A stretch of 32,000 nt of DNA from an uncultured Thermoleophilia bacterium (lineage in GTDB: Bacteria > Actinomycetota > Thermoleophilia > Miltoncostaeales > Miltoncostaeaceae), in contig CAWATR010000015.1 in assembly GCA_963784985.1 (NCBI GenBank), positions 148,902-180,901 on the forward strand, read 5' to 3'. The translations under genes and the position numbers were made by a program. The stretch's first letter is position 1; each line of letters opens with the position of its first letter. Positions 1-31,310 of the stretch are shown here, piece by piece. The notes below the pieces were generated by a model. The model saw nothing but the letters and a program-made list of their open reading frames with translations, had not been told where the DNA came from and searched no databases.

Positions 1-34
1 CCTCGTCAGCGTGGACGGCGGCCTGTCCCTGTGA
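1..34 (+). CDS. 3' end of an upstream gene, short-chain dehydrogenase/3-oxoacyl-ACP-reductase-like C-terminus (partial)
   Basis: Positions 2-31 read ...LVSVDGGLSL followed by TGA at 32-34. A 'VDGG' tail is typical of SDR enzymes. The stop overlaps the next gene's GTG (GTGA, 31-34). Only 10 codons are visible. Confidence 0.3.
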   Translation, partial: LVSVDGGLSL

Positions 35-1288
35 CCCCGCGTGAATTGCGAGAGCGGGTGGTCATCACCGGCATCGGTCTGGTCTCACCGCTCGGGATCG
101 GGCGCGACCGACGCCTGGGCGGCGGCGCTGGCCGGACGCTCCGGTGCCGGGCCGGTCACGCGCTTCGACGCATCCGGCCACGGGGCGCAGATCGCGTTCG
201 AGGTGAAGGGCTTCGACCCGCTGACCTACATCGACCGCCGCGCCGCACGCCGGATGGATCGCTCCTCGCACTTGGCCGTCGCGGCGGCCGCGCTGGCGAT
301 CGAGGACGCGGGCCTGGTGATCCCGCCGGACGCCGAGCGCTACGGCGCGGTGATCTCGACGGGCAACGGCGGGAACGCGACCTACGAGGACGCGCACCGC
401 ACGCTGCTCGAGCGCGGCCCGGACCGGATCTCGCCGGTGGCCCTGCCGATGATCATCTGCAACATGGCGGCCGGGCACGTGTCGATCGCCTATGGGCTCA
501 AGGGCCCGTTGTCGTGCGTGCTCACCGCGTGTGCCAGCAGCCTGCACGCCCTCGGCGAGGCTGCGGACATCATCCGACGCGGCGCTGCGGACGTGATGCT
601 CGCCGGCGGGTCGGAGGCCGCGATCACGCCCTACGCGATGGCGGCACTCGACGCATCCCGCGCGATGTCGCACCGCAACGACGATCCGGTCGGCGCCAGC
701 CGGCCCTTCGATGCCGAACGCGACGGGTTCGTGCTCGGCGAAGCCGGGGCGATCCTCGTGCTCGAGCGCATGGACCTCGCGCTCGAGCGGGGTGCGACGA
801 TCGTCGCCGAGCTCGCCGGCTACGGAGCGACCTCCGACGCGCACCACATCACCGAGCCGCACCCCGACGGCTGCGAGCAGGCGCAGGCGATCCGCCGGGC
901 GCTGGCCTCGGGCGACATCGATCCCGCCTCGGTCGATCACGTCAACGCGCATGCGACGTCCACCCTCGCCGGCGACGCCTCGGAGGTGCAGGGCATCATC
1001 ACGGCGCTCGGCGCGCCGCACGCGGAGCGCATCGCCGTGAGCGCGACCAAGTCCATGCACGGCCACTGCCTCGGCGCCACTGGTGCCCTCGAGGCGGCGC
1101 TGACCGCGCTCGCGGTGGCCGACCAGGCCGTGCCGCCCACGATCAACCTCGACCACCTCGACCCGGCCTGCGTCGGCGTCGACCACGTGCGCACGGCGCG
1201 CAACCAGGTCATCCGCACGGCGCTCTGCTCCGGGTTCGGGTTCGGCGGGCACAACGCGGTGCTGGCGATCTGCAAGGTGGATGCATGA
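31..1288 (+). CDS. beta-ketoacyl-ACP synthase (KAS I/II, FabF/KasA-like), copy 1; one frame break as sequenced
   Basis: GTG at 31 gives 'RVVITGIGLVSPLGIG' in the 31..1968 frame. The rest is in ORF 41..1288: 'WAAALAGRSG..TRFD', nucleophile motif 'LTACASSLHALG', 'DAHHITEP', 'VNAHATST', 'KSMHGHCLGATG', 'GFGFGGHNAVL'. A +1 frame change is needed near 100-112. Confidence 0.9.
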
Positions 1289-2540
1289 GCCCGCGACGGC
1301 GCGTGGTGGTCACGGGCGTCGGCGTCGTCTGCGCACTCGGCGTCGGCCGGGAGGACGTCTGGCGCAACGCGATCGCCGGGACGCCGTGCGGAGCGCCGAT
1401 CACCGGCATCGAGATCGGCGACGCGCCGGTCCGCATGGCCTGCCAGGCACGCGAGTTCGTCGTCGAGGATTTCGTCGAGCGGCGGCTCGCGCGCCGCGCG
1501 GATCGCACAACCCACTTCGCGCTCGCTGCCGGCCGGCTCGCGCTTGCCGATGCCCGCCTGACGATCGCCGACGACGGCCGCAACACCGGCTGCATCCTCG
1601 GCACGGGTACGGGCGGCAACCACGTCCGCGACGAGAACCACACGGTCATGCTCGAACGTGGCGTGGACCGCATCTCGCCCTTCGCCATCCCCTACAGCAT
1701 GTGCAATCACCCGCCGGCGGAAGTCGCGATGCAGTTGGGCCTGCGCGGCCCGACCATGGCGATGGTTACGGCGTGCGCGGCGGGAGCCGACGCCATCGGG
1801 ACGTCCACCGCGGTGATCCGGCGCGGGGACGCCGAGGCGATGCTCGCCGGCGGGACCGACGCGATGATCACCCGGCTGTGGATCGCCGGCTTCGACGCGA
1901 TGCGGGTGCTCTCCCGTCAACGAGGACGACCCCGCCGGCGCCGTGCGGCCCTTCGACGTCGCGCGTGACGGCTTCCTGATCGGCGAGGGCTGCGGCGATC
2001 CTGGTGCTCGAGGAACTCGGGCACGCGACGGCCCGCGGGGCGACGATCATCTGCGAGATCGCGGGATACGGCGCCAGCGCGGACGCGCACCACATCACGG
2101 ACCCCGATCCGACCGGCCAGAGCCAGGCGCGGGCCATGCGGGCCGCGATCGCCGAGGCCGGCGTCGAGCCCGGGGACATCGGGTACATCAACGCGCACGG
2201 CGGCGCCAGCCGACCCGGCGACCCGTCCGAAGTCGCCGCGATGCGCCACGTCCTCGGCGATGCCCACGCGGCACGTACCGCCGTGTCGGCGACCAAGGCC
2301 ATGCACGGGCACTGCATGGGCGCGACCGGGGCGCTCGAGGCGACCCTCACCGCACTGGCGGTGTCCGAGGGCCGCATCCCGCCGACGATCAACTTGCGCG
2401 ATCTCGATCCCGAGTGTGCGGGCGTCGACCACGTCGTCGACGCGGCGCGCGAGGCGCGCCTGAGCGCAGCGCTGTCGACCAACAACGGGCTGGGCGGCCA
2501 CAACGCCGCGTTGGTGTTCGTGCCGTGGGAGGGCCGATGA
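1285..2540 (+). CDS. beta-ketoacyl-ACP synthase family protein, copy 2 (Cys-His-His retained); two frame breaks as sequenced
   Basis: The ATG overlaps the KS1 stop (ATGA, 1285-1288). It reads 'RRVVVTGVGVVCALGVG', 'MVTACAAGADAIG', then switches frame near 1915-1921 ('NEDDPAGAVRPFDVARDGFLIGEG'). It switches again near 1995-2000 into ORF 2004..2540 ('ADAHHITDPDP', 'INAHGGASRPGD', 'KAMHGHCMGATG', 'GLGGHNAALVF'). Confidence 0.88.
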
Positions 2541-2734: not shown

Positions 2735-3156
2735 GCCTCCCCGGCGGCGACCTGCGGCACCGCCACCGGCCGCTCATCCGGGCCGATCGCCACGAACACG
2801 AAGCGTCCCGTCCCGCACAGGCGCCGCTCGCCGGTGAGCAGGACCTCGGCGACCATGGTGACCTCGATCGACATCGACGTCCGCCCGGTCGCGGTCACGA
2901 CCGCCTGCACCTCGACGATCTCGCCGATGTGGACCGGGGCGACGTAGTCGACCTCGTCGACGCCAACGGTGACCACCGTCTGACGGGAATGTCGCGTCGC
3001 GGCGACGAACGCGGCCCGGTCCATCATGCTCAGTGCCACCCCGCCGAACAGCGTTCCGCGATGGTTGAGCTGCTCGGGCAGCACGATGTCGGTCATGCGC
3101 GTCACCGCCGGGGCGGCAAGGGCGTCGGCGAACGGGTCGACGGTGGCGTCGGTCAT
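2731..3156 (-). CDS. acyl-CoA thioesterase, hotdog fold (4HBT/YciA-like), 141 aa, intact
   Basis: This is the C-terminal part of minus ORF 2731..3993, starting at the ATG at 3156. It reads 'LPEQLNHRGTLFGGVALSMMDRAAF...VTVGVDEVDYVAPVHIGEIVEVQAVVTATGRTSMSIEV', typical of acyl-CoA hydrolases. The ATG overlaps the tag stop (ATGA, 3153-3156). Confidence 0.8.
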   Translation of the reverse strand: MTDATVDPFADALAAPAVTRMTDIVLPEQLNHRGTLFGGVALSMMDRAAFVAATRHSRQTVVTVGVDEVDYVAPVHIGEIVEVQAVVTATGRTSMSIEVTMVAEVLLTGERRLCGTGRFVFVAIGPDERPVAVPQVAAGEA

Positions 3157-3720
3157 GCCAGGTCCTTCGCGGTCGGTTGCGGTGCCCCGTGGCGCCAGGG
3201 CGGCCCGAGCGCGTCGATGCGCGCGTAGGCGGGGCAGTCGGGGGCATGCGCACCCGGCAGGTAGCCGAGCGACGTCAGGAACTCCCTGGTGATCTCGGGC
3301 CCGGTGAACCGGAACGTCCGTCGGAACAGCCGCACCCATTCGTCCTGGGTCGAGCGGGTGCTGGGCATCCAGCCACGCGGCGACGCTGCCGTGGCTGGCG
3401 ATCATCTCGCACATGACGCCCGCGTTCGCGATGATGGCCTCGATCTTGCGGCGATTGCGGATGACCCGGGGGTCGGTCACCAGGCGTGCGCAGCCCGACT
3501 CGCCGAGGGCGGCCACGTGCGCCGGCGCGAAGCCCCCGAAGGCGTCGCGAATGCCGTCGCGCCGGCGCAACACGATCTCCCACGAGAGCCCGGCCTGAAA
3601 GATCTCGAGCGCGAGCCGCTCGCACAGCACCTCGTCGTCGCGGCTCGGCACGCCGTACTCGAACTCGTGGTAGTCGTGGTGCACCGGATGCCCGGGCGCG
3701 ATCGCGCAGTACGCGCTCAT
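3153..3720 (-). CDS. tag: DNA-3-methyladenine glycosylase I; one frame break as sequenced
   Basis: From the ATG at 3720: '[45 protein letters not shown]', '[18 protein letters not shown]'. The C-terminus continues in ORF 3153..3368 ('[37 protein letters not shown]'). A +1 change is needed around 3343-3370. Confidence 0.85.
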
Positions 3721-3792
3721 CGCCGGACGCCGGCCGGCCGCATTGTCACCTGTCGGCCCTCCCAGAGGTCCCGCAGGATACGCTAGGACACT

Positions 3793-7517
<3,725 letters not shown>

Positions 7518-7521
<4 letters not shown>

Positions 7522-8057: not shown

Positions 8058-8269
8058 CGGCAGGCATGCTGCCAGATCCGGGGCGCCCGCGGCGTGCCGA
8101 CGGGCCGGCGCAGCCGGTGCGCGCGAACCCCCGGGGCGTACCGGATATGAACGGGGCCAAGTCCGGCCGAAATCGACGGCTGCGAGCGGTATCCTCACGC
8201 CCTACCGGTTGCGGGCCAATTCCGCAATCAGGCAAACTGTCGTGTTCTGACACCTATCACGGAGGGCAC

Positions 8270-9841
8270 ATGGCAACTGAGGTCGGTGAACGCGCAGTCG
8301 CGCTGCTCGAGGCGAATGGTCTGGCCCCAACGGGAACAGGTGTTCTGGGACCTGTCGACTGAGGTCCTGTACGAACACGCGATCACGAACGGGTCGGCCC
8401 GTCTGGCGCATGGCGGTGCGCTCGCCGTGACCACCGGTGTCCACACCGGCCGGGCGCCCAAGGACAAGTTCATTGTCAAGGAGCCCGGGAGCGAGGCCCG
8501 CGTGGGCTGGGGGGCCGATCAACCAGTCCATCGACCCCGAGCACGCCGCCAAGCTCGGCGCGGACCTGCGCGCGCACCTCAACGCCGCGCCGCAGCTGTA
8601 CGTGCTCAACGCCCGTGTGGGATCGGACCCGACGCACGGCATCATCCTCCGGCTGGTGACCGAGAGCGCCTGGCACGCCCTGTTCACCAAGAGCCTGTTC
8701 ATCGACCTCACCGACGAGGAGCGCGCCAGCCGCTCGACGCCGGACGGCATCATCCTCCACGCGCCGAGCTTCAGCGCCGACCCCGCCGTCCACAAGACCC
8801 GCCAGGGCAACTTCGTGGTGATGAACCTCTCCGAAAGCGAGATCCTGATCGGCGGCACCGCAGTACGCCGGCGAGATCAAGAAGTCGGCGTTCACGCTGA
8901 TGAACGACCGCCTGCCGCTCGAGGGCGTCCTGCCGATGCACTGCTCGGCCAACGTCGGCCCCAAGGGCGACGTCGCGGTGTTCTTCGGCCTGTCGGGGAC
9001 CGGCAAGACGACGCTCTCGACCGACGCGACCCGCCCGCTCATCGGCGACGACGAGCACGGCTGGTCGGACGAGGGCGTCTTCAACTTCGAAGGCGGCTGC
9101 TACGCGAAGGTGATCGGGCTGTCCGCCGAGGCCGAGCCGGAGATCTACGCGACCACGCGCATGTTCGGCACCGTGCTGGAGAACGTCGTCCTGGACCCGG
9201 ACACCCGGATCATCGACCTCGACGACGACTCGCTGACCGAGAACACCCGCGGCGCCTACCCGCTGGAGTCCGTGCCGAACGCGGTGCCCGAGAAGCGCGC
9301 CGGCCAGCCGACGAACATCGTCATGCTGACCTGTGACGCGTTCGGCGTGCTGCCGCCGATCGCCAAACTGTCGCCCACGCAGGCGATGCAGATGTTCCTG
9401 GCCGGCTACACCGCCAAGGTCGCCGGCACCGAGATCGGCGTCACCGAGCCGCAGGCGACCTTCAGCTCGTGCTTCGGTGCCCCGTTCCTGCCGCAACCGC
9501 CGAAGGTCTACGCGGCGCTGCTCAAGGACCGCATCGAGCGGTACGGGGTCAACGTCTGGCTGATCAACACCGGCTGGACCGGTGGGGGCGCCGGCGTCGG
9601 CAGCCGCATGCCGATCAAGGTGAGCCGCGCCGTCGTGCGCGGCGCGGTGTCGGGCGAGCTCGCCGGCGCCGAGACCCGCACCGACCCGATCTTCGGGTTC
9701 GAGGTGCCGGTCGCCGTCGAGGGCGTCGAGCCGTCGCTGCTGGACCCCAAGAGCACCTGGCCGGACCCGGCCGCCTACGACGAAACGGCCACGCAGCTTG
9801 CCGCCGACATCGTGTCCCACGCCGAGACGGCCGGCCAGTAG
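8270..9841 (+). CDS. pckA: phosphoenolpyruvate carboxykinase (ATP-dependent type); three frame breaks as sequenced
   Basis: GGAGG at 8261-8265 precedes the ATG at 8270. It reads '[14 protein letters not shown]', '[18 protein letters not shown]', '[14 protein letters not shown]', P-loop '[13 protein letters not shown]', 'IGDDEHGW', '[10 protein letters not shown]', 'NTGWTGG'. +1 changes are near 8325-8340, 8509-8514 (a run of six G) and 8860-8866. Confidence 0.93.
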
Positions 9842-9851
9842 CACCCGGACC

Positions 9852-9889: not shown

Positions 9890-9895
9890 AGCCGT

Positions 9896-10721
9896 TCAGT
9901 CTGCCGGCGGCGGGCCCACGGGGTCGGCTGGCTCCGCCCAGCGCGGCGCGCGGCGCTCCCGGAACGCCGCCAGCCCCTCGGTGAACTGCTCGGAGGCGTA
10001 TGCCTCCAGGCGGATCCGCTCGATCGTCGCGGCGTCCTGCGGCGCCGGCGCGCCGGCCAGCAGGCTGATCGCCGCACGGGTGCCGGCGACGGCGGTTGGC
10101 GCCGCCTGCACGATGTCGGAGACGGTCTCGCCGATCGCCGCGGCAAGGTCGGCGGCGGGGACGACGCGATCCACAAGGCCGATCTGCTGCGCCCGTGCGG
10201 CCGAGACGGGCCGTCCGGTCAGAAACAGCTCGCGGGTCCGCGCCGGCCCCATGATCGCCAGGAAGCGCGCGAGCCCCTCCGGCGAGTAGACGACGCCGAG
10301 GCGGGCGGCCGGCATCCCGAGCGTGGCGCTGTCGGCGGCGATCCGCCAGTCGCAGGCGACCGCGAGCTCCAGCGCACCGCCGAACGCGGCCCCGTTGACG
10401 GCGGCGACGACCGGACACGGGCAGGCGGCGATGGCAGCCGTCGCGGCGCGCAGCAGCTCCTCGCCCCGGACGAGCCGTTCGGCGAGCACCGGACCCTCGA
10501 GGTCCGCCAGATCGAGCCCGGCCGAGAAGTGGCGCTCACCCGACCCCGTGAGCACGATCACGCGCAGTTCGCGGACGCGGCCGCTGCGTGTGCCGGACGA
10601 TCGCGGCGAGCATCTCGTCGGTGACCGCGTTGGCGCGCTCCGGATTGTGGATCCGGATGACGATCGCCCGGGCATCCTCCTCGACGAGCAGCCCGGGCGC
10701 GGAAGGGATCTGGGGTGGCAT
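9896..10721 (-). CDS. enoyl-CoA hydratase/isomerase (crotonase) family protein; one frame break as sequenced
   Basis: ATG at 10721, preceded by GAGGA. 'LLVEEDARAIVIRIHNPERANAVTDEML' is in ORF 10536..10931. The rest is in ORF 9896..10675: 'LRVIVLTGSGERHFSAGLDL', 'PVVAAVNGAAFGGALELAVACDWRIA', 'ARELFLTGRPVSAARAQQIGLV'. A +1 change is near 10585-10597. Confidence 0.85.
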
Positions 10722-10881: not shown

Positions 10882-11830
10882 TCAGCCGCCGAGCGACGCG
10901 TCGGCGAGCACCCGCTCGACGACGTCGTCAAGCGAAAGCCCCGCCGCCAGCGCCGCCTTGGGCAACAGGCTCGTGTCGGTCATCCCCGGGATCGGGTTGA
11001 TCTCGAGCACCCAGATGCGCTCGTCGTCGTCGATGAGCATGTCGACCCGACCAAAGCCACGGCAGCCCATCGCCGCGTAGCAGGCCAGCGCCGTGCGCGC
11101 GACCTCGCCGGCCAGCTCCGAGCCGAGGTCGGCCGGCGCGACGAGCTCGGTCATCCCGGGCGTGTACCGCGCCTCGAAATCGTAGAACTCCCCGCTGAGC
11201 ATGGCCTCGACGGCCGGCAGGGCCTCGGGCTCCTCGGTGCCGAGCACCGAGACCGCGATCTCGCGGCCGCGCACGAACCGCTCGATCAGCACGTGATCGT
11301 CGAAACTCAGGGCCGTCATCAGCGCGCGCGGGACGTCGTTCGGTTCGCGCGCGACCGAGATGCCGAGCGCAGATCCCTGCTTGGCGGGCTTGACGACCAG
11401 CGGCAGCCCGAGCCGTGCCTCGATCTCCATCAGGGCATCGGCCGCGCCGAGTTCCCTGAACGCACTCTCGCCGAAGGCGAACGCCGGCGGTGTCGCAATC
11501 CCGGCGTTGGCGAACACCGCCTTGGCGATCACCTTGTCCATCGCCCGCGCGCACGCCTGCACGCCCGAGCCGGTGTAGGGGATGTCGAGGATCTCCAGGA
11601 GCTCCTGGACGGTGCCGTCTTCGCCGCCCTTGCCGTGCATGGCCACGAACACCACATCGGGGCGCTCGGCACGCAAGGTGCGGACCAGGCTCGGGTCCGC
11701 ATCGACGGGGATCACCTCGTGCCCGAGGCGCCGCAGGGCGGCCTCGACGTTGGCACCGGAGCGCAGGCTGACCTCCCGCTCCATCGAGCGGCCGCCCTTG
11801 AGGACCGCAACGCGCCGTTGCGCCGCTCAC
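10882..11830 (-). CDS. ddl: D-alanine--D-alanine ligase; inferred frame break in the first ~5 codons
   Basis: ORF 10882..11784 reads 'EREVSLRSG', 'DVVFVAMHGKGGEDGTVQELLEILDIPYTGSG', 'PLVVKPAKQGSALGI', 'GRVDMLIDD..IWVLEINPIPGMT'. The conserved 'RRVAVLKGGRS' lies in-frame upstream of the first ATG but has no start codon. A GTG at 11830 overlapping the upstream stop (GTGA) fits if one base near 11817-11819 is extra. Confidence 0.9.
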
Positions 11831-13117
11831 CGGCCCCCGCCGAGCGCCCGCTGCAGGTCGATCATCGCCTCGATCGCCGCGCCGATCCGCGCGACGCCCT
11901 CGGCAAGGACGTCCTCGCGTGCTCCCGAGAAGTTCAAGCGCATGCTGTTGCGCCCCTGGCCATCGAGGAAGGCCGCTTCGCCGGGCACGAACGCGACCTG
12001 GTGGCGCTCGATGGCACGCGCGAGCAGCTCGCCGGTGTCGATGTACTCGGGCAGCGTCGCCCACACGAACAACCCGCCCTCGGGTCGCGTCCAGGTCGCC
12101 TCGCTGCGGGAAGTGCTGGTCGAGCGCCGCGAGCATCGCATCGCGCCGGCTGCGGTAGATCCCGTTCAGCCGCGCGACGTGATCACGCCAGTCGACCCGG
12201 CGCAGATACTCAACGATGAACCGCTGGCTCATGGTCGAACTGCACAGGTCGACGGCCTGCTTGCCGAGGTTCATCTTGCGCAGGATCGGCGCGGGCGCGG
12301 CGACCCACCCGATCCGCATGCCCGGCGCGAGGATCTTGGAGAACGTCGACAAATAGATCACTCCGCCCGCGCCGCCGTCGAGCTCCCACAGACTCGGCAG
12401 CGACTCGCCCTCGTAGCGCACGGGCCCGTACGGGTTGTCCTCGACGATCAGCACGTCGCGATCGGCGGCGAGCGCGACCAGGCGCTCACGCCGGTGGCGG
12501 GCCATGGTCACGCCGCCGGGGTTGTGGAAGTTCGGGATCGTGTAGATCAGCTTCGGCTTCTGCCCCTGGGCCGCCAGGCGATCCAGCTGCTCCTCGAGCA
12601 GGTCGATCGACATCCCGTGGGCGTCGAGCGGGATGTGGATCACCCGCGCCTGGTAGGTCGTCAGCGTCGGCACGGCCCCGGGGTAGGTGGGGCCTTCGGC
12701 GATCACGATGTCGCCGGGATCGATGAAGGTCCGCAGCGCGAGTGCGATCGCCTGCTGTCCGCCCGCCGTGACCAGGACGCCGTCGGGCTGGGCGGGCATC
12801 CGGTCCTCGGCCATGAGCCGGCAGATCGCCTGGCGCAGCTCGAGCAGACCCTCGGTCGGCCCGTACTGCAGCGAGGATGCCCGGTGGTCGTTGGCGACCG
12901 CGCGCCAGACCTCCTCGTAGACCTCGGCCGGGAAGGAGTCGGTGTCCGGGAAGCCGCCGGCCAGCGAGATGATCTCGGGCCGCTCGGAGAGCGACATGAG
13001 ATCGCGCATCGCCGACGACTTGATCCCCATCGCGCGCGCAGCGAAACGGTCCTCGAAGCGCGACGGGTCCCGCGGGACGGTGCGATCGGCCGTGGATGCT
13101 CCCTTGATGTCGTTCAT
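11827..13117 (-). CDS. PLP-dependent aminotransferase, class I/II (ARO8/LysN-like); one frame break as sequenced
   Basis: From the ATG at 13117: 'MRDLMSLSERPEIISLAGGFPD', 'LQYGPTEGLLELRQ', 'IYTIPNFHNPGG', 'STFSKILAPGMRIGW' (PLP lysine context). The C-terminus is in ORF 11827..12141 ('TWTRPEGGLFVWATLPE', 'AFVPGEAAF', 'MRLNFS'). A +1 change is near 12100-12108. Confidence 0.85.
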
Positions 13118-13201
13118 CGCGGCCCCATAGGCGTCCTACAACCGTACGCGGTGCAGGGAAGGTCTGCCCGGCGGCCCGGTCGCATACCCGCAGTGGGTGC
13201 C

Positions 13202-13210: not shown

Positions 13211-13213
13211 TGC

Positions 13214-13685: not shown

Positions 13686-13720
13686 GCACAGGCGGGTGGG
13701 GCCGACCGGCCGCAATTGCC

Positions 13721-16726: not shown

Positions 16727-16786
16727 ATGCGCGCGCCGTCGAGCCGACCCGTGCCGCACCGCCGACGTTGCCGCCGAGATCGCCCG

Positions 16787-19276: not shown

Positions 19277-19318
19277 GCGCCGCGACCGACGCGCGCACCC
19301 GGCGGATCATGCGCGCAC

Positions 19319-19344
19319 CGACGGGACCTGATGGGATCCCGTCG
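19319..19344 (+). terminator. weak hairpin downstream of fbaB
   Basis: CGACGGGA (19319-19326) pairs with TCCCGTCG (19337-19344), an 8-bp stem with a 10-nt loop, 43 nt after the fbaB stop. There is no T-tract. Confidence 0.25.
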
Positions 19345-19452
19345 GCGCGGTCGTGCCGCCGAGGGCTCGCCCCGGCATCGACTACGCTCAGATCGGGTGC
19401 TCGCGACGGCGCCGTCCCGGGCCGCCCGGTACCTCCAGCGTCCGGACACCGC

Positions 19453-20859
19453 ATGCCGCAGATTCCAACGGGTCGCCCGCAGCGCCGCGATGACGACGCC
19501 GCTCGTCCACGGCGCCGACTCCTGGGCGCGGTGGGCTCGGGGCTCGGGGCCGCCTGCCTGGCCGGACTGGTGCTGGCCGCGACCGGCGCCGCAACCGCCC
19601 CGGTCGGATCGGTGGCGATCACCTCGCCGGGCACGCGCGGTCCACCGCGGGCAGTTCGTGCCCCTGTCGGCAACCGACCCGGTGGGCTGGTTCTGCCAGG
19701 TCCGGGCGAGCGACGGCCGGCACTCGAGCGTGATCACCGGTGTCGTGGCGACGCCGAACGGCCTGCTGCACTCGGGGTGGCTCGTCCCGCGCGCGACCCG
19801 GGTCCGCGCACTGGACCGTGACGGTCGCCTGCGGGCCATCGCCCGCGCCGTTCGCGCCCGGGCAGGTCCGCGTGGCCTCCCAGCGGCGCGTCGTACTCGC
19901 CCCGGTGCCGGCCTCGAAGATCACAGCCGGACATCGTCGACATCACCGCGCCGTTGGGGTATCAGTCCGGCAGCTACGCGGCGGGCACCGGCATCGTGAT
20001 CGCCGCCTCCGGCCTCGTGCTGACCAACAACCATGTGGTCGCCGGCAGCACGGGCATCGCCGCGATCGACCTCGGGAACCGCCACCAGCTACCGGGCCCG
20101 GCTCGTCGGAATCGCGATCTCCGCCGACCTCGCGGTCCTGCAGCTGGAGGGCGCACACGGGCTGCGGCGTGCGCCGTTCGGCAACTCGGCGTTTGCCGTC
20201 CGCGGCAGCGGCGTCAGCGCGGTCGGCAACGTCGGGGGGCGCGGCGGGGCGCCGACGATCACCTCCGGGATCATCACCGCCGTCAACCAGCTCGATCGTC
20301 GCGACCGACGGCGTCGCCAACACGGTCGAGCACCTGACCGGACTGCTGCAGACCAACGCCGTCCTGCGGCCCGGTGACTCCGGCGGTCCGCTGGTCGACA
20401 CGGCCGGGTCGGTCGTCGGCATCGATACCGCCGCGGCGGGTGACGGGACGTCGGATCCGACGGGCTTCGCCATCCCGTTCACGCCGGCGCTGGCGACCGC
20501 CCAGGCGATCCTCGCCGGGGTGCCGCGCCCGGGACTCGCGCTCGGATCGCGACGCATACACGGGATTCCTCGGCGTCCAGGTCGTCGGCGGCACGCCGCG
20601 CGGCGCCCGGATCGTGCAGGTCGAACACGGGTCGCCCGCCGATCATGCCGGGCTGCACGCCGGCGAGACGATCACGGCGCTCAACACCAACCCGACCGCC
20701 TCTCCCGCGATCCCGCCACGCCCGATCGCGACCACCGGGCAGCTGACCGCCCTGCTCGCTCACCTGCACCCGGGCGCCGAGGTCGCCGTCACGGTCACCG
20801 GCCCGAACGTGCCCACCACGCCCGTCTTGGTCACCTCGGGCGTCGGCGCCGCGCGCTAA
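19453..20859 (+). CDS. secreted/membrane-anchored trypsin-like serine protease with C-terminal PDZ (HtrA/S1C-like); about six frame breaks as sequenced
   Basis: The ATG at 19453 gives a basic N-terminus plus the anchor 'LLGAVGSGLGAACLAGLVLAATGAA'. The catalytic triad is in three different ORF fragments: 'GLVLTNNHVV' (19954..), 'ISADLAVLQL' (20033..) and 'RPGDSGGPLVD' (19740.. frame). The PDZ-like 'FLGVQVVGG..GARIVQVEHGSPADHAGLHAGETITALN' is in 20374..20859. All six changes are +1, near 19620, 19800, 19925, 20085, 20290 and 20540. Confidence 0.8.
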
Positions 20860-20860
20860 T

Positions 20861-20898
20861 CGACCGACACGCGGTCGGTGCCGCGGGGCCGTCGGCAC
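20861..20898 (+). terminator. two short GC hairpins directly after the protease stop
   Basis: CGACCG/CGGTCG (20861-20877) and GTGCCG/CGGCAC (20878-20898) start 2 nt after TAA (20857-20859). The stems are only 6 bp and there is no T-tract. Confidence 0.25.
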
Positions 20899-20977
20899 GC
20901 CGCCGCGCCGGCGGGTGTGGTCGGCGCTGGGCGCCGCGATTCTGGGCCGCACGCGATCCGGTCACCGGCGGGCCGGT

Positions 20978-20983: not shown

Positions 20984-20989
20984 CTCGGC

Positions 20990-21508
20990 ATGGACGCCGC
21001 GCCACCGGACGACGACCTGGTGATCGGCGTCGCCGGGTCCGGACGCATCGACGGGCTCGAGTCCCTCTGGCTGGCCCTGCACCGCCACCATCGCGCGGTC
21101 GCCGCCGTGCCCGTGCAGTCCGACGACCGGCTCTCGTGGGAGCTGTGCCGCGCCAACTACCGGCGCCACATCGATGCGGACGAGGGCTTTCTGGTCGTCG
21201 CCGACCGACCGGCGGGCCCGGTCGGGTACGCGATGGTGCTGCTGCGCAGCGGTCCGGATGACACCTACCCGTTCGCCGGCCGCTTCGCCGAGGTGCTGAC
21301 GCTGGTGGTCTCGCGCGACGAGCGCGGCGGCGGCGTCGGGCGGCCGGCTGCTCGATGCCGTTGACCGGAATTGGCGCGGCGGGGGATCCGCGACCAAGTG
21401 ATCGCCGTGATGGCCGGCAACGCGGCCGCGCAGCGGCTCTACGAGCGCCGCGGGTTCGTCCCGGGCGAGATCATCCTGTTCCGGCTCGGCGGACCGCCGG
21501 GCGCCTAG
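20990..21508 (+). CDS. GNAT-family N-acetyltransferase; two frame breaks as sequenced
   Basis: 'GFLVVADRPAGPVGYAMVL', 'AEVLTLVVSRDERGGGVG' (motif A start). After changes near 21338-21345 (+1) and 21366-21370 (-1, GG where GGG is needed) it reads 'RLLDAVDRELARRGIRDQVIAVMAGNAAAQRLYERRGFVPGEIILFRL'. Confidence 0.75.
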
Positions 21509-22230
21509 GTGTCCAGGCACCGACGCCACCGCGGATCGCTCACCGGTCGCTGCCCGCTGGCGCGGCGCACCGCGTGCGCCCACTCGGGCAGCATCAGCGC
21601 GGCTCCGGCGAAGAAGCACAGCGCCCCGAGCAGCGTGCCGAGGTTGGCCCAGCGCGGATCGATCGCCTGGCTGCTGTGCGGGCAGCACGTAGCTGGCGAT
21701 CGCCGAGACCATGAAGAAGATCGACCCGATCATGTTCAGCCACGCGATCTCCCATGCGAGCGACCCGGGCTCGAGCTCGAACAGCGGCCCGAGCGCGAGG
21801 ATGGCGAACGCGCTCGAGACCAGGAACAGCACCGAGCCGACGAAGTCGGGGACCCAGACCAGGTGGTGCGTCTGGGTGGTGGTCAGGTTCGTGGCGATCG
21901 CGAACGCGGTGCTCGCGTTGAAGGCGAGCGTGCCCGGGAACTGCGTGGCCGCCGCCAGCCAGCCGCGGTCGTGCGGCAGCCAGGCCCGCAGGACGGCCGG
22001 CCGGCGCCGCAGGTCGTCGCCGTCGGGCGCCATCTGCGGGCTTTGGGACTGCACCAGCTGCGAGAACGAGGCGCTCGTGAAGAAGATCGAGCCGACGAAG
22101 AACGTGATCGCATCCGGACGGCTCCGACGGCGTTGACGTACCAGGGGATCGTGCCCAGCGCAAAGCACGCCGACCCGATCATGAACAGCACCGCGATCGC
22201 GGCGTTGAGGTGCCGCGGGCGCAGGCGCAT
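21505..22230 (-). CDS. polytopic membrane protein with YrhK-like repeated 'GS.(F/L)F' helices; two frame breaks as sequenced
   Basis: From the ATG at 22230: 'AIAVLFMIGSACFALG', 'ITFFVGSIFFTSASF', 'FVGSVLFLVSSAFAILALG', 'NMIGSIFFMVSAIASY', and a third fragment 'ANLGTLLGALCFFAGAALMLPEW' ending at TAG (21505-21507). Changes are near 22110-22125 (-1 or +2) and 21655-21665 (+1). The family assignment is from motif memory only. Confidence 0.5.
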
Positions 22231-22233
22231 CAG

Positions 22234-22312
22234 CGCACGCCCCGCGTGCGCCGCGTGCCTGCGCGCCGCAGGGCGCCGCTGCGGGCGGCCGTCGCCGCAC
22301 CCCGACGGCCGC
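22234..22312 (-). terminator. three consecutive GC hairpins filling the spacer after glutamate decarboxylase
   Basis: Hairpin 1 is GCGGCCGTCG/CGACGGCCGC (22285-22312), a 10-bp perfect stem with an 8-nt loop abutting the TAA stop at 22313-22315. Hairpin 2 is CCGCAG/CTGCGG (22266-22284). Hairpin 3 is GCGCACG/CGTGCGC (22234-22251). Confidence 0.4.
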
Positions 22313-23699
22313 TTAGTGCCGGAAGCCTTCCTTGTGGATCGCCGACGGCGTGCGCTCGGGTTCCGTGGCGAAGGCCTCGAGCACGTCGTGCATGTGCGCG
22401 AGCAGCAGCCGCGCGAGGTCGTGGCTGAACCCGTGCCGCACCACGATGCGGCAGATCACCAGGTCGCTGCGGTTGTCCTCCATCGAGTAGGCGGGCACCT
22501 GCCAGCCGTACTCGCGCAGTCGCGCGGACAGCTCAAACAGCGTGAAGTTCTGGTCCGGGCGCAGCGACCAGGACAGCACGGGCAGGTCCGACCCGTCGGT
22601 GATGATCTCGAACGGCCCCATCTTCCCGATCTCGCCGGCCAGGAACTTCGCGACATCCTGCGCCGTCTGCTGGATCTTGGCGTAGCCGCTCCGGCCGAGG
22701 CGGACGAAGTTGTAGTACTGGGCGATGATCTGGCCGCCGGCCGTGAGAAGTTGATGCCGAAGGTCGGCATGTTGCCGCCCAGGTAGTTCACCCGGAAGAT
22801 CAGCTCTTCGGGCAGTTCGGCCGCATCACGCCAGAGCACCCAGCCCACCCCCAGCGGGGCGAGCCCGTACTTGTGCCCGGACGCGTTGATGGACTTGACC
22901 CGGGGGACCCGGAAGTCCCATTCGAGGTCGGGCTGCAGGAACGGCGCGACGAACCCGCCGCTGGCGCCGTCGACGTGGATCGGGATGTCGAGTCCGGTGC
23001 GCTCTTGCAGGTCGTCGAGCGCCGCGTTGATTTCGGCGATCGGCTCGTATTCGCCCGTGAACGTGGATCCGAGCACGGCGACGACGGCGATCGTGTTCTC
23101 GTCGCAGCGCTTGACCGCTTCGTCCGCGCTGAGGATGAATCGGTTGCCTTCCATGGGAACGAGCCGCTCCTCGACGTCCCAGTAGCGGGCGAACTTGTGC
23201 CAGCACACCTGCACGTTGGACCCGGTCACGATGTTGCGGTCGGTCCGTCGGGCGCCCCGCTGCCCGCTGGCGCTGTTGCCAGCGGCGCAGCAGCGCCATC
23301 CCGCCCAGCATGCAGGCCTCGCTCGAGCCCGTCGTCGAGGTGCCGATCACGTCCTTGCGCAGTCGGGCGCGTTCCAGAGGTCGCCGAGCATGTTCACGCA
23401 GCGCAGCTCGAGCTCGGCGGTCTGCGGGTACTCGTCCTTGTCGATCATGTTCTTGTCGAAGCTCTTGGCCATCAGCAGCAGCAGCTCCGGCTCGGCCCAG
23501 GTCTGGCAGAACGTCGCCAGGTTGAGCCGCGCGTTGCCTTCCACCATCATCTCGTCGCGGACGAGCTCGTAGGCGTGGCGCGCATCCCACTCGTCGTCGG
23601 GCATCTTGTACTTGGGCGCGCTCCACGACGGATCCGTGCTGACGTAGACGTCGTCGGCGGCGTCCGCCTCGCTGAGCTCTTGACCCGGTGAACCGCCAT
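22313..23699 (-). CDS. gadB: glutamate decarboxylase (PLP-dependent, GadB-like); four frame breaks as sequenced
   Basis: AAGGAG (23705-23710, minus strand) lies 5 nt before the ATG at 23699. The protein is colinear with GadB across four ORF fragments: '[13 protein letters not shown]', '[23 protein letters not shown]', '[16 protein letters not shown]', '[15 protein letters not shown]', '[14 protein letters not shown]', '[22 protein letters not shown]', '[28 protein letters not shown]', '[11 protein letters not shown]', C-terminal 'GFRH'. Changes are near 23676 (-1), 23360 (-1), 23240 (+1) and 22730 (-1). Confidence 0.92.
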
Positions 23700-24550: not shown

Positions 24551-24598
24551 GCCCGCGTCCGGCGGCGGGACCGCCCTGCGGGCTTCGCCTAGGCGAAG
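24551..24598. terminator. hairpin-rich 38-bp convergent spacer including a 16-bp perfect palindrome over a stop codon
   Basis: GCCCGC (24551-24556) pairs with GCGGGC (24578-24583). CTTCGCCTAGGCGAAG (24583-24598) is a perfect palindrome centred on CTAG. It contains the TAG stop (24589-24591, minus strand) of the PPDK-like gene. Confidence 0.35.
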
Positions 24599-26211
24599 GT
24601 CTGCTGCCAGTCGCGAACGCGCGCGATCAGCTCGAGCGGCCGCTCGTCGATGAGGATCAGCTCACCGACGTAGATCCGACCATCGGTGCCATCGACGGTG
24701 ATCGTGTCGCCCGGGTGCAGCTCGCTGCTGCCGATGCGCACCACCTGGCCGCCGAGATTGATCGACAGCTCGCGGCACCCGACCAGGCAGGCGATCCCCA
24801 GGTGACGGGCGACGACGGCGGCGTGCGACGTGCGGGCGCCCGCCGCGGTGACGAGCCCCCGGCACACCGACAGGCCGGCGATGTCATCGGTGGAGAGCTG
24901 CTCACGGACGAGGATCACCTGCTGGCCCGCGTCGGCGAACCGTGTCGCCGTCGCAACGTCGAGGGCGATCCGCCCGCACGCCACACCCGCGCTCGCCGGC
25001 ACCGCCTGCGCAACCGGCTGCGGCTCCTGATCCGACGCGAGCCGCGACCGGCTGATCGTGTCGATGTCGTATGCCTGCAGGCGGGCGAGCGCGGTCGGAG
25101 GGTCGATCACGCCGTCATCCACGAGATCGCAGGCGATGCGCAGCGCCGCCCACGCGGTGCGCTTGGCGGCGCGCGTCTGCAACAGCCACAGCGCGCCGTC
25201 TTCGACGGTGAACTCGAAGTCCTGGGCGTCGCCGAAGACCGACTCGAGCGCGCGCCGGACGCGTCTGCAGCCGGTCCGCAAGCCCGGGGACCGCGGCGAT
25301 CTGGGCATCGGGGTCGTGCGACCCGTGGCGCCCGCCGACGACATCCTCGCCCTGTGCGTCGAGCAGGAAGTCGACGTACAGCCGGTCCTCGCCCGTCGCG
25401 GGATCGCGCGTGAACCCGACTCCCGATCCCGAGGTGGGGCCGAGGTTGCCGAACACCATCGCCTGGACGGTGACGGCGGTACCTTCCAGGTCCGTCAGGC
25501 CCTCGAGCCGACGGTAGGCGACCGCGCGCGGGGCGTCCCAGGACCGCAGCACCCCCTCGATGGCGCCGAGCAGCTGCTGCATCGGATCCTGCGGGAACTC
25601 ACGCCGGGCTTCGCTCGCGGAAGATCGCCAGGAGCTCCTCGACGATCTCCTGCAGCGCGGCCAGGCCCAGCTCGGAGGCGACCGGTACACCCGCCCGGCC
25701 CAGGGCGCGGGTCGTCACGGCGGAGAACGGCGCAACCGGGCACCCCTCGACAACCTCCGCGTAGGTCTCGATCAGACGGCGGTATGAGTCCCAGACGAAG
25801 ATCGGGTCGCCGGTCGCCCGCAACAGCGCCGGCACGGTCACCTCACACAGCCCGACATTGAGCACCGTGTCCAGCATCCCCGGCATCGAGGCGGCCGCGC
25901 CGGAGCGCACCGAGACCAGGAGCGGCCGGCGGCGCGCGGCGAAGCGGCGCCCGGTGCGCTGCTCGATGTGCGCCAGCCCCACGCCGATCAGCTCGATGAC
26001 GTCCTCGACCGACGCGCTCGCCGCCGGCGTGGTAGTCCGCGCAGACATCCACACCGAGCACGAATCCGGACGGAACCGCCAGGCCGGCGTCGGCCATGCG
26101 CATGAGGTTGGCCGCCTTGATCCCGACCCGCCGCGGGTCCGCATCGCCGTGGCCGTCGCCATCCAGGACGTACAGGCGCCCGTCCGCCGACGCAAGGCCG
26201 CCGGAGCTCAT
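24589..26211 (-). CDS. pyruvate-phosphate-dikinase homologue with the ATP-grasp N-terminal and phospho-histidine swivel domains only (no PEP/pyruvate-binding domain); three frame breaks as sequenced
   Basis: The ATG at 26211 overlaps the upstream stop (ATGA, 26208-26211). It reads '[24 protein letters not shown]', '[26 protein letters not shown]', '[11 protein letters not shown]', '[13 protein letters not shown]', 'DVVGGRH', '[27 protein letters not shown]'. The swivel domain reads '[28 protein letters not shown]', '[12 protein letters not shown]'. The stop comes about 25 aa later. +1 changes are near 26040, 25615 and 25280. Confidence 0.85.
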
Positions 26212-28164
26212 GGCACCGAGAGCTGCTCGAGGATGCGATCGCGCAGTCCGAGCGCAGACAGCAACAGCGCGTCGGTCGCACCCTCCGCGCACCGGCAGAC
26301 GCTGTCGGCGAGATACAGGCTGCGGAAGTCGGGGGCCTCGACGACGAAGCCCGCACGCGCGGCCCGGTCGGTCGAATCGGCCTCATGCTCGAGCGCGGCC
26401 ACCCGGTCGACCGCGACCAGGAAGTCCTCGAGGTCCTCGGGCGCCGGCCGGTTGACCACCTCGCGCGCGATCTCGAGCGCCTTGAGATGTTCGCGGGCGG
26501 CCATGACCGCGATCGACGCGAGCGGCTCGAGCCGCGGGTCGCACGAGCGCCGCCGCGTCGGCGGGCAGCAGGGTGAGCAGGAAGATGGCCTCCTCGAGAT
26601 CATCCACCGCGTCATCGGCGATCGTGGTCAGCGCGGTGATCTTGTCGCCGGCGTCGACACGGCGTGCCGCCTCGCGCTGCCAGTTGAGGATCTCGTCAGC
26701 GCGGTGCTCGCAGCCGGACGCGCGCGCGGCCGCCCGGTCGGCGAACTCCGCGCTCTCCCCGGTGCCGAGCCGGACCACCACGGCCTGCAGGACCTGCGCG
26801 CATTCGACCAGCAGGCTGGCATGGTCGGCGCTCGCATCGAGCAGGCGACGGTGGGATGCGTCGATGTGACGAAGCATCTCGACGCGGATCTCGTCGCGGA
26901 TCAGCAGCGGCGACTTGCCGGCCAACATCCCCTCGGTCGCCGCCCGCAGCGCAAAGCGCGTGATGTCAAGCACCGCGTCGCGGCCGAGGATCTCCACGAG
27001 CGGCTCGCCGTAGCGTGCAGGCACGCGCTCGGCGAGCTCGACCGCGTCATAGACCAGGCGCTCCCCGCCGAGCATCAGGAAGCCCATGTGTCCGACATTG
27101 GCGTCCGCGGCCCAGCGCAGGATCGCGACCGCATCTGCGCGCGACAGGAAGCTGTTGAGCCGCTTGCGGGCGCGATTCCAGTCGAGGACGAAGACCAGCC
27201 GCGACCCAAGGTGGCGAAGATACGCACGCAGCTCGCTGCGATCGCGGGCGTCGAAGCACCCGGTGGTGAGGTGATGGGCGCCGATCGCCGGCTCGCCGTG
27301 GCGTTGCTCGGTGCCGGACCAGCGTACGGGAAACGCGTCCAACATCGATTGGAAGAACTCCAGGCGCCGACGATGCACGTCCGTGTACGTCACCGTCACC
27401 TGCAGGTCCTCGATCGCGATGACCACGACATGCGCGTTCGTCGTGCCGAGGTCGTTCTGGATGAGCAGCCGGGCGCCGGCACGGGTCGCAGTGGTGGCCA
27501 GGCCCGGGTGGTCGAACTTCAGCGCCTGCGTGTCGTGGACGCCCGCCATGAACGCGGCCACCTGCGGTGCGTCGTCGGCGTCCAGCCCGTACACCGCGGC
27601 ACCGTCCAGGCTGGTCGTCGCCACGCGGGTCTGGAGCCGGTTGAGCGCGCGATGCGCATCCATCACGACCAGATGCAGCGAGTCGCCGAGATCCCTGTCG
27701 GCCGAGGTGATCCGGTCGATGTAGCTTCCGCGCACGCGATCGCCGCTCAGATCGGACGGACCGGGCGCGAGGGCGTCCAGCCGCGCCCGGTCAGGGGCGT
27801 CGACGGCCTGCGCAGCGGCCAGCGGTGTCAGCATCTGCCTGACCGCTGCCAGCAGCGTCTCGTGGATGCGCTCGGCGTTCGGGACGAAGTAGATGTCGGC
27901 ATCGATGCGCCGGGCCCGCTCGATGACATCGTCGTACTCCGGCTCGGGCACGCCGGCCGCGAGCCGTTCGTCACGCAGCGACGCGAACCGCTGGTCGGGA
28001 GCATCGGCGCGGGCGCGCGCCGCCTGGAGCAGGCTCAGCAGGTATTTTGCGCGGTTGTTCGCGTCGAGACCGTCGTTGAGCAACGCCGGCAGCACGAGTG
28101 AGGCTTCGCCGAGCGCCTCCAGGACGTCGTGCTTGACCGGTGCGGTGTCGGGATCGGACATCAC
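26208..28164 (-). CDS. unassigned ~650-aa protein with a DUF47/PhoU-like helical C-terminal region; one frame break as sequenced
   Basis: GTG 28164 or ATG 28161, with GAAGG 7 nt upstream. A 593-aa fragment (ORF 26383..28164) has ordinary globular composition and no motif I recognise. The C-terminal ~200 aa carries two 'EH.AD' helices: 'GCEHRADEILNWQREAARR...DDAVDDLEEAIFLL', then (ORF 26208..26615 frame) 'VAALEHEADSTDRAARA...CAEGATDALLLSALGLRDRIL'. A +1 change is near 26540-26570. Confidence 0.6.
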
Positions 28165-28171
28165 GAGCGTA

Positions 28172-28195: not shown

Positions 28196-28486
28196 CCTCC
28201 GCACGCCGGGAGCCGGCCGGGCATCAGTCCTCGCACATCCCACGATAGGCGCACCGGGACGCGAGCGCGCGCGGGTGCTGTCACCTCGCCATAACCGCCC
28301 GCGCTCGATGGCCGCTCGGCGTGGACCTCCGGCTCGCATGGGCTGCCGCCGCGCGCGGCGCGGGCAGGGGCGGCGGCCGATCGCGCCGACCGCACGGCTC
28401 CCGACATGGGTGCTTGCTACGCTCGATCCAGGGAGGACCCGGCACGGCCGCGCGTGCGCGCGGCGAACCTCGATGACGGAGCGACC

Positions 28487-29402
28487 ATGCGGGCGGTGCG
28501 GTTCAACCAGTACGGCGACGAGCACGTCTTGCAGGTCGTCGAGGTGCCGCGTCCGGTTCCGGGTCCCGGTCAGGTCCTGGTCCAGGTGCGCGCCGCCGGA
28601 ATCAATCCGGGCGAAGCCAAGATCCGCGACGGCGCGATGCACGACATGTTCCCGGCGACCTTCCCGTCGGGCGAGGGCAGCGACTTGGCAGGGGTCGTCG
28701 TGGAGACCGGCGCCGGTGTCGACGGATTCGCGCCCGGCGACGAGGTCGTCGGGTTCACCGACACCCGTTCGAGCCACGCCGAATACGCGCTGGTGGAAGC
28801 GGCCAACCTCGTCCCGAGGCCACCTTCGGTCGCATGGGAAGTCGCCGGCGCGCTGTTCGTCGTCGGCACGACGGCGATCGCGGCGGTTCGCTCGGTTGGT
28901 GCGGGACCCGGTGACGTCGTCGTGGTGGCGGGAGCCGCCGGCGGCGTGGGCTCCCTCGCTGTCCAGTTGGCGCACCTTGCCGGCGCGCGGGTGCTCGGCA
29001 TCGCCGGGGCTGCCGACGGGCCCGTGGCTGCGCGAACACGGCATCGAGCCCATCAACTACGCCGGCGACGTCGCCGCCGCGATCCGGGCGGCGACAGGCC
29101 AGGTCGACGCGTTCATCGACGCCGCCGGACACGGCAACGTCGCCCTCGCACTGGATCTCGGCGTCGCACGGGACCGTATCGACACTGTCGTCGACTTCGC
29201 GGCCGCCGCACAATTCGGCGTCAAGACCGACGGCAGCGCGGCGGCAGCGACCGCCGACACGCTCGTCGAGCTGCTCGGGTTGCTCGCGGATGGCCGGCTC
29301 GAGTTGCCGATCGGCAGGACATTCCCGCTCGACCAAGTGCGCGAGGCCTACCGGTTCCTGGATACCAAGCACGGCCACGGGAAGGTCGTGCTGATCCCCT
29401 GA
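28487..29402 (+). CDS. NADPH:quinone oxidoreductase-like, medium-chain (zinc-type) dehydrogenase/reductase family; one frame break as sequenced
   Basis: GGAG lies 7 nt before the ATG at 28487. It reads 'MRAVRFNQYGDEHVLQVVEVPRPVPGPGQVLVQVRAAGINPGE', 'GDEVVG', and the nucleotide-binding 'VVVAGAAGGVGSLAVQLA'. The C-terminus is in the 28140.. frame ('LELPIGRTFPLDQVREAYRFLDTKHGHGKVVLIP'). A +1 change is near 28995-29025. Confidence 0.85.
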
Positions 29403-29560
29403 TCCCTGTCGGGGGCCGTCACCGTACCCTCGGCGTGCAGTGGCGATTCAATGGCTTGCGCGCCCGCATCGACCCTCGGGCAACGCATATCGTGCGGGCA
29501 TTGGCGCTCGTATGTGCGTGACCGGGTAACGCAGCCGCACGGTACGAGATACCTCCCGGC

Positions 29561-31310
29561 GTGCCCGCTCCGACGGATGGGGCGCTGACGGTGCCCGCGC
29601 GACGCGACGGCGGGCCACGGGAACCGCCGCCCGCGCCGATTCTCGCGCTCGATGGCGACCAGCTGCTCGCGGGACTTCGCGGCGCGGCAACGGCCCTCGC
29701 ATCGCACGAGGCGTTGATCAACGAGTTCAACGTCTTTCCCGTTCCCGACGGGGATACCGGGTCCAATATGCGCCTCACCTTCGCATCCGCCCTCGCCGAC
29801 GCGGAGCAGGCCGCGGCGCCCGAGCGTCGCGTCAAGCATCATGGATGCCGCCGCGCACGGCGCGCTCATGGGGGCCCGTGGCAACAGCGGCGTCATCCTT
29901 TCCCAGGTCATCCGCGGCCTGGCGCACGGCGTCGACGGGCGCGCGACCGTGGACGCCGGCACCCTCGGCGACGCGTTCGCGCAGGCGACGAGAGTTGCCT
30001 ACGCCGCGGTGATCAACCCGATCGAGGGCACGATCCTGACCGTGGTGCGGTCCGCTGCGGCCGGCGTCGCGGCGGCTGCGTCCAGCTCGGGCGACATCCG
30101 GGTCGTGCTGGCCGCGGGCGCGCAGGCCGCATACGACGCCGTCGACGGAACGATCGATCAGCTGCCGATGCTCCGCGACGCCGGCGTGGTCGATGCAGGC
30201 GGCTTCGGATTTGCCGTACTGCTCGCCGGCTTGTGCGCGGCAGTGACCGGCATCGCCGTGGAGCCGGGACCCGTGCTCGCCGCGCTGACCCGCACCGATC
30301 GCCAGCAGATCGCCACGGGTCCGAATGGAATACAGGTGGAGGCTGCTCGCGGGACGGCGGCGATGCCCGACCGCGAGGAGTCATGGGGGTTCTGCACCGA
30401 GTTCATCATCGAGGAGCCGCGCATCGCGACCGCCGCACTCCAGTCGCTACTGGCATCGGAGGGAGACTCGCTGCTCGTGGCGGGTGACGAGGTGCGAATG
30501 CGGGTACACATCCACACCGACGCACCGGATGAGGTCATCGCGATGGCGTCGCGCTACGGACGCGTCGAGCGCATCAAGGTCGAGGACATGTCAGCCCAGC
30601 ACGACGACGTCCTTGCGCGGGGCGGCGGGGCGTCGTCGCCCGGATCCGCCCGCCGGGCCGCCGCGGTCGTCCCGGTCGCTGCCGGCCACGGTTTTGTGTC
30701 GATCCTGCGCAGTCTCGGTGCCGACCAGATCGTCGATGGTGGCCAGACCATGAACCCGTCGACCCACGACCTGCTGAGCGCCGTCGTCGCCGCCCGCGCC
30801 GAGACGGTGATCCTGCTGCCCAACAACGGCAACATCATCCTTGCGGCCGAGCAGGTCCACGAGCTTGCCGAGGGGGTCGACGTCCGCGTCGTGCCAACGC
30901 GCAACCTGCCCCAAGGCATCAGCGCGCTCTTGTCATGGGACCCGGGTGTCGGTATCGATGACTGCGTGGACCGGATGCGTGCGGCTGCCGCACGCACGCG
31001 AGCGCTGGAGATCACCCGCGCGGTCCGCGACGCCCGTGTCGGCGCCCGTGACATCCGCGGCGGCGACGTGCTGGCGATCCTCGACGGTGAGATCGCCGGC
31101 CACGGAGCACGTGAGGACACCCTCATCATCCAGATGCTCGGCGGTCTCGCCGTCCTGCCGGAATTCGTCACGATCTATCACGGCGCGGGAATCGATCCCG
31201 CCGACGCTGCGTACCTCCTGTCCTCACTTGAATCCGCGCATCCGACGATCGGGTTCGAGCTGCACGAGGGCGGCCAGGATCACTACACGTACGTGCTCGG
31301 ACTGGAGTAG
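29561..31310 (+). CDS. DAK2 domain fusion protein (YloV-like); one frame break as sequenced; start uncertain
   Basis: 'INEFNVFPVPDGDTGSNM' is in the 29561 frame. ORF 29841..31310 reads 'HGALMGARGNSGVILSQ', 'NPIEGTILTV', 'LRDAGVVDAGGFGF', and a C-terminal DegV-partner-like domain ('GFVSILRSLGADQIVDGGQTMNPST'). A +1 change is near 29825-29840. GTG 29561 and GTG 29588 are candidate starts and neither has a clear SD. Confidence 0.85.

Follow-up and report, generated by a model that had tools for sequence, protein, structure and literature searches.

We found that the reading-frame breaks running through one 32,000-nucleotide stretch of bacterial DNA are real features of the deposited sequence but not, as we conclude with high confidence, of the organism, and that overall they are an artefact of the assembly consensus. 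The stretch, here called the window (G000:C15:148902-180901), is part of contig C15 of a medium-quality soil metagenome-assembled genome (MAG) from an uncultured Thermoleophilia bacterium, which comprises 2.72 Mb in 30 contigs at 70% GC with an estimated completeness of 74.6%; coordinates below are window positions unless C15 or a genome is stated. About 55 clusters of extra or missing bases are private to the window, and they affect 20-21 of its 26 genes. Comparison with related genomes suggests that the insertions probably arose when reads of co-occurring strains were collapsed into a single contig.

Results

A plot of GC content at third codon positions (GC3) shows that the coding frame jumps within long genes of the window. 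The nearest genome among those compared is G006 (6 contigs, 94% complete), which is syntenic with the window and shares 96-97% identity with it. A blastn alignment of the two regions gave 103 gap events; at 70 of them the window has one base more than G006, and at 27 it has one base fewer. To polarise these gaps, each event was checked against G002 and G003, two further genomes that are syntenic with the window at ~85% identity; in some stretches (24569-24576; 28344-28407), G006 was the sole reference. Thirty-four clusters are +1 and four are -1 relative to all three relatives, and several more are +1 relative to the two relatives that align there. After filtering, 54 window-private frame-changing clusters remained, made up of 43 of +1, 3 of +2, 7 of -1 and 1 of -2. 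A 55th event, a +1 at 14366-14392, was flagged by the decoder described below and then confirmed by a four-genome alignment; it lies in a linker of the first GT87 gene, where the aligned segment has 101 nt in the window but 100 nt in each of the three relatives, and only the window loses the frame. In total, ~47 clusters carry extra bases and 8 carry missing bases, a bias of ~6 insertions to 1 deletion by cluster, at a density of ~1.5 single-base errors per kb.

An earlier note on this DNA, made from its letters and a list of open reading frames (ORFs), had counted some 45-50 breaks with a roughly 8:1 bias toward extra bases and had found 22 of 27 genes broken. It had proposed placing the indels by alignment to a close genome, as was done here against G006, G002 and G003 for the 54 private clusters. 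The abundance of breaks and the fraction of genes affected were borne out by this comparison, whereas the bias proved less steep than the note had estimated.

The same breaks were recovered without reference to any relative. A frameshift-aware codon decoder (Viterbi), trained on the source genome's own long ORFs, called 41 shifts in the raw window (34 insertion-type and 7 deletion-type) at sites that agree with the comparative calls. The corrected window yielded 7 such calls, and the 35-kb region of G006 yielded 11. This decoder was used instead of a per-contig measure of GC3-supported ORF length, which was dropped because it could not separate clean from dirty regions. When only the private events were reversed in silico, full-length ORFs reappeared. 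The longest GC3-supported frame before reversal spans 417 codons; the longest piece of metH grew from 283 codons to 1241 codons, stop to stop, and pckA, the aminotransferase gene, the GT87 genes, gad and the PPDK-like pair were likewise restored. No internal in-frame stop was seen in the frame-corrected genes of the window and no private indel exceeds 2 bases, in keeping with the note's statement that in-frame stops and large deletions are absent. Ten orthologues are uninterrupted, with lengths that are multiples of 3, in all three relatives. The events show no regard for coding sequence: 44 of the 54 lie inside genes, which make up ~91% of the window, so that indels are equally frequent in coding and non-coding DNA, and within codons the insertions are spread over the three slots as 14/14/12, with no phase preference.

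In 36 of 48 insertions (75%), the inserted base is unlike both of its neighbours, compared with 48% expected for random insertion, and homopolymer slippage, whether by a polymerase or in a pore, is therefore not the source. Of the 36 insertions for which the comparison could be made, 23 (64%) introduce the base that G002 or G003 shows as a substitution at the adjacent position, against a null expectation of 14% (p ~1e-11). The match persists in a strict subset of insertions that differ from both neighbours and whose flanks agree fully with G006 (9 of 14 versus 18%, p ~2e-4). The consensus thus tends to carry the two alleles of a variable site next to each other.

Mixed strains are also visible in the bin. 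A total of ~175 kb at the ends of contigs overlaps with sequence on other contigs, at 88-98% identity (examples are listed in Table 1), and some near-identical overlapping pairs differ by >5 gaps per kb. This redundancy indicates that the MAG mixes two or more related strains or species. A search of public metagenome contigs for the exact pattern around the insertion at 18484, with the base either present or absent, found nothing.

We also asked what the window's substitutions say about selection. Coding sites that could be aligned across the four genomes amount to 17.1 kb and hold 83 window-private substitutions, 51 of which are synonymous, compared with 27% expected at random, with a ratio of nonsynonymous to synonymous rates (dN/dS) of ~0.23. 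The G006 branch has 265 substitutions and the same dN/dS. Private indels and substitutions in the window stand at ~1:3, and natural ratios lie nearer 1:10 or lower. The private substitutions are thus mostly synonymous, as under purifying selection, despite one frame-breaking indel for about every three of them. Elsewhere in the MAG, single-copy essential genes are broken in the same manner. One extra base splits rpoC, gyrA has 2 extra bases and ileS has 2-3, and each of these genes is a single ORF in G006; secA has 3 extra bases, and the G006 copy has one break of its own.

The breaks extend throughout the MAG, in which the decoder called 2126 frameshifts (1495 insertion-type and 631 deletion-type; 0.78 per kb), compared with 0.21 per kb, evenly divided between insertions and deletions, in 435 kb of G006. 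The excess genome-wide is roughly 1500 frameshifts. Their distribution is patchy, with a dispersion index of 3.6 over 10-kb bins and clean stretches that span 10-40 kb. On C15, successive 10-kb bins hold 27, 1 and 26 frameshifts, followed by 0-2 per bin from 180 kb on; near-clean stretches at ~20-35 kb, ~118-131 kb and 180-215 kb adjoin stretches with 10-27 per 10 kb. The last of these clean stretches starts at about window position 31100 and extends past the end of the window. In neighbouring 2-kb segments, the counts of decoder frameshifts and substitutions range from 0 versus ~150 to 6 versus 16, and a ratio that swings in this way is easier to reconcile with a local technical cause than with mutation.

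Two possible drivers of this patchiness were considered and set aside. Divergence from G006 correlates only weakly with frameshift density, and clean patches occur at both extremes: they are either 0.1-0.8% or 6-8% divergent, and on C15 the 192-215 kb stretch is 0.0-2.0% divergent (mostly <1%), whereas the 118-131 kb stretch is 4-8% divergent. GC content shows a modest correlation with frameshift density (rho ~0.32) that partly reflects detection power.

The relatives are not free of such events. G006 has five or six private single-base insertions, at positions equivalent to 205, 1351, 1714, 2462, 4209 and 21038 of the window and mostly in the KS1, KS2 and metH regions, while in this region G002 has ~11 private insertions and G003 has ~9 private indels. 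These are probably errors of the same kind at lower density.

Discussion

Our results support the earlier note's view that the breaks are uncorrected, insertion-biased consensus errors rather than pseudogenes: they are private to the window and have no codon-phase preference, the accompanying substitutions are few and mostly synonymous, and rpoC, gyrA, ileS and secA are broken as well. The note's further suggestion, that the errors come from noisy reads, holds as far as an artefact is concerned but not as plain random noise, since most errors duplicate the other allele of an adjoining position that differs among relatives, and since they are patchy. The assembly was most likely built from Nanopore reads alone; we infer both the platform and the polishing step. 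G003, a genome of the same genus, is a long-read MAG from the Microflora Danica catalogue, which was generated from Nanopore reads only, with Flye (meta, nano-hq) and one round of Medaka (PMC12313526). In the Nanopore-only assemblies and MAGs described previously (Flye with Medaka, and tests of the IDEEL type), single-base indels likewise fragment healthy genes, and more so at low coverage (PMC9262707, PMC12313526). Further points of likeness to Nanopore-only MAGs are that relatives of the source genome come from such a catalogue and that completeness of the CheckM type falls.

We favour a mechanism, which we consider probable though well short of established, in which strain mixture generates the insertions. 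Reads of two or more co-occurring strains would be collapsed into one contig, and a single-nucleotide polymorphism (SNP) between strains, or several adjacent SNPs, would appear in the read alignment as an insertion plus a deletion. If the polisher then retained the inserted allele without dropping the original one, both alleles would stand side by side and the frame would shift by +1. Several observations weigh against this account or against an artefact in general. Published descriptions of Nanopore consensus errors stress homopolymer indels (PMC9262707), whereas here 75% of the extra bases lie outside runs and usually repeat the other allele of a neighbouring variable site. If strain SNPs are mostly synonymous, and thus at third positions, few insertions would be expected between codon positions 1 and 2, but no such depletion is seen (14 of 40); as this prediction failed, support for the strain mechanism comes from the adjacent-allele test and from the redundancy of the bin. 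Finally, rpoB and the 23S rRNA gene are clean in the source genome, and decay that spares essential genes would look the same. The breaks in rpoC, gyrA, ileS and secA contradict that reading of the two clean genes.

The closest competitor is plain low-coverage noise, in which thin long-read coverage leaves random errors in the assembly and strain mixture plays no part. Such noise would account for insertions that are uniform across codon slots and for a density that varies along contigs as coverage would. It also has precedent, as the authors of the Microflora Danica catalogue link Nanopore-associated errors and cases of low coding density to MAGs of lower coverage (PMC12313526), and a near-finished Nanopore consensus requires ~40x coverage (PMC9262707). 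Noise of this kind does not, however, predict that inserted bases repeat an adjacent allele in 64% of cases, where 14-18% would match by chance, nor does it predict their avoidance of homopolymers, and the bin visibly mixes strains. We therefore regard read noise alone as an unlikely explanation, albeit one to be taken seriously.

Explanations that place the extra bases in the organism fare far worse. Genuine and very recent mass pseudogenisation, by reductive decay in this lineage, is highly improbable. It would be in line with an intact rpoB and rRNA operon alongside many metabolic genes that are hit repeatedly, and insertion-biased indel spectra do occur in some actinobacteria that lack mismatch repair. 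Decaying genomes such as those of Mycobacterium leprae and recent endosymbionts resemble the window in having many genes with several frameshifts each and some core genes intact. Unlike them, the window lacks nonsense codons, its deletions never exceed 2 bases, its private substitutions are few and mostly synonymous (dN/dS ~0.23), and the essential genes named above are hit; moreover, with three-quarters of the insertions outside runs, the spectrum is not one of slippage, and the ratio of decoder frameshifts to substitutions swings between neighbouring 2-kb segments. Least probable of all is programmed recoding, in which the extra bases would be read through by +1 ribosomal frameshifting, quadruplet decoding or correction at the transcript level. 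Each gene keeps its sense in full before and after every break, and nearly all breaks are +1, as in the programmed frameshifting of prfB and Euplotes and in quadruplet decoding. In contrast to those systems, there is no conserved shift site or shared context here: the inserted base falls between many different pairs of neighbours, without a common four-base word and without a preferred codon phase. ARAGORN found 48 tRNAs in the source genome, none with an expanded anticodon loop or a four-base anticodon, and quadruplet decoding was rejected on the absence of both a matching tRNA and a common word. Neither are the shifts conserved in close relatives, as G006 encodes the same proteins without the extra bases at 96-97% identity, nor are they confined to coding DNA. 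Spacers carry the same kind of events, and at locus L014 (G000:C7:128252-134236), where the 23S rRNA gene has the same length as in G006, the adjoining 1.3 kb, unannotated here, has five single extra bases. It is correspondingly hard to credit that the extra bases are truly in the strain's DNA and that the cell still makes full-length proteins by correcting for them throughout the genome, for instance by widespread +1 frameshifting or by editing its transcripts.

The consequences of a consensus artefact concern annotation quality and not biology. Automatic gene calls on this MAG will be fragmented, with spurious pseudogenes, and its completeness is under-estimated (74.6% versus 94% for G006). 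For users of long-read MAG catalogues, the signature to look for is patches of single extra bases that lie outside homopolymers and copy the strain allele of a neighbouring site. Checks focused on homopolymers would miss it, while polishing that is aware of reading frames or of strains should remove the errors.

Gene map of the window

Genes were identified by Pfam searches of the window genes or of their G006 or G002 orthologues, and the results agree with the names proposed in the note, including two ketoacyl synthases, MetH, an ATP-dependent phosphoenolpyruvate (PEP) carboxykinase, Ddl, GT87 proteins and a decarboxylase dependent on pyridoxal 5'-phosphate (PLP). Private events are listed by gene in Table 1.

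Table 1. Features of the window with their private frame-changing events, followed by examples of overlapping contig ends in the source genome
Feature	Position	Strand	Private events or alignment	Identification
KS1, beta-ketoacyl synthase	31..1288	+	extra base 105-107	Pfam ketoacyl-synt on G002 orthologue
KS2, beta-ketoacyl synthase	1285..2540	+	extra bases 1917, 1991	Pfam
Gene(s) in the region the earlier note assigned to a thioesterase	2774..3723	-	extra base 3352	no Pfam match found for minus-strand pieces 2774-3253 and 3275-3625
metH, B12-dependent methionine synthase	3787..7521	+	extra bases ~3800-3803, 3998, 4793+4794 (two), 5343, 6031, 6439, 6774, 7031	five MetH Pfam domains on G006 orthologue
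Spacer or 5' region before pckA	8092..8149	.	extra base near 8092, missing base near 8148	
pckA, ATP-dependent PEP carboxykinase	8279..9841	+	extra bases 8338, 8516, 8859	Pfam
Enoyl-CoA hydratase	9896..10691	-	extra base 10572	Pfam
ddl, D-Ala-D-Ala ligase	10882..11826	-	extra base 11819-11821, at or just before 5' end	Pfam
Class I/II aminotransferase	11827..13135	-	extra base 12103	Pfam
GtrA-like membrane protein	13295..13685	+	extra base 13400-13402	Pfam
First GT87 (GT-C) glycosyltransferase	13718..15461	+	one extra base within 14366-14392, variable linker	Pfam GT87
Second GT87 gene	15458..16726	+	extra bases 15561, 16249, 16314	Pfam
Third GT87 gene	16727..18094	+	extra bases ~16743, 16874, 17363, 17392	Pfam
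DeoC/LacD-family (class I, fbaB-like) aldolase	18214..19276	+	extra base 18484; two bases missing relative to G006 at 3' end (19276-19293)	Pfam
HtrA-like trypsin-PDZ protease	19277..20859	+	extra bases 19303, 19358, 19808, 19926, 20088, 20289, 20550	Pfam
GNAT acetyltransferase	20984..21508	+	extra base 21341, missing base 21365	Pfam
YrhK-like membrane protein	21540..22236	-	extra base 21678, missing base 22116	Pfam
gad, PLP-dependent (glutamate) decarboxylase	22313..23684	-	missing bases 22738, 23670; extra bases 23236, 23355+23360	Pfam
Spacer before PPDK-like gene	24569..24576	.	two extra bases	
PPDK_N / PEP-utilizers protein	24589..26193	-	extra bases 25261, 25614, 26014	Pfam
654-aa protein	26208..28170	-	extra base 26539	Pfam match not found
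Zinc-type alcohol dehydrogenase-like gene	28406..29402	+	extra base 29018; +1 and -1 events 28344-28407 near start	Pfam
FakA-like (Dak2) and DegV genes	29841..32000	+	both unbroken open frames; no private indels called	Pfam
Overlapping contig ends	C3:1-15830 vs C29		98.1% identical, 90 gap openings in 15.9 kb	
Overlapping contig ends	C16:1-12690 vs C15:206157-218840			
Overlapping contig ends	C6:1-15461 vs C15:199350-214798			

The per-gene tallies in the note were close to those obtained here, with 8 sites in metH, 4 in gad, 3 each in pckA and the PPDK-like gene, and 2 each in KS2, the GNAT gene and the YrhK-like gene. For the protease, six breaks had been counted and seven were found; two GT87 genes had been given three each and have 3-4 each. 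DegV is an open frame without private indel calls, just as the note had described it. Four of the six -1 events that it had listed are confirmed (23670 and 22738 in gad, 21365 in the GNAT gene and 22116 in the YrhK-like gene), whereas those at 4815 and 23360 each turned out to be two extra bases. The extra G that it had placed in the run of six G at 8509-8514 in pckA was not upheld: the extra base aligns as a C after the run rather than as a seventh G. pckA is intact, with a length that is a multiple of 3, in G006, G002 and G003. The note had also named ddl, metH and fbaB as essential genes that are hit. This is the case for metH, at 8 sites, and for the fbaB-like aldolase, at 18484, but in ddl the sole extra base, at 11819-11821, lies at the 5' end or just ahead of it.

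Some further differences stand apart from the counted events. In the N-terminal region of the protease (19627-19851), +1/-1/+1 differences relative to G002 and G003 are common to the window and G006; these look like real compensated changes in the lineage, or a poorly alignable low-complexity linker, and not private errors. Among the tRNAs of the source genome, a tRNA-Pro of 98 nt, a tRNA-Ala of 83 nt whose anticodon lies at position 27 and a tRNA-His of 82 nt have odd lengths, and the ARAGORN listing for this genome contains no tRNA-Asn; both may reflect indel damage or an incomplete bin. The spacers that flank the GNAT gene (20860-20976 and 21504-21556) contain blocks of 5-35 bases that differ from G006, which is ordinary intergenic length variation and was excluded from the counts.

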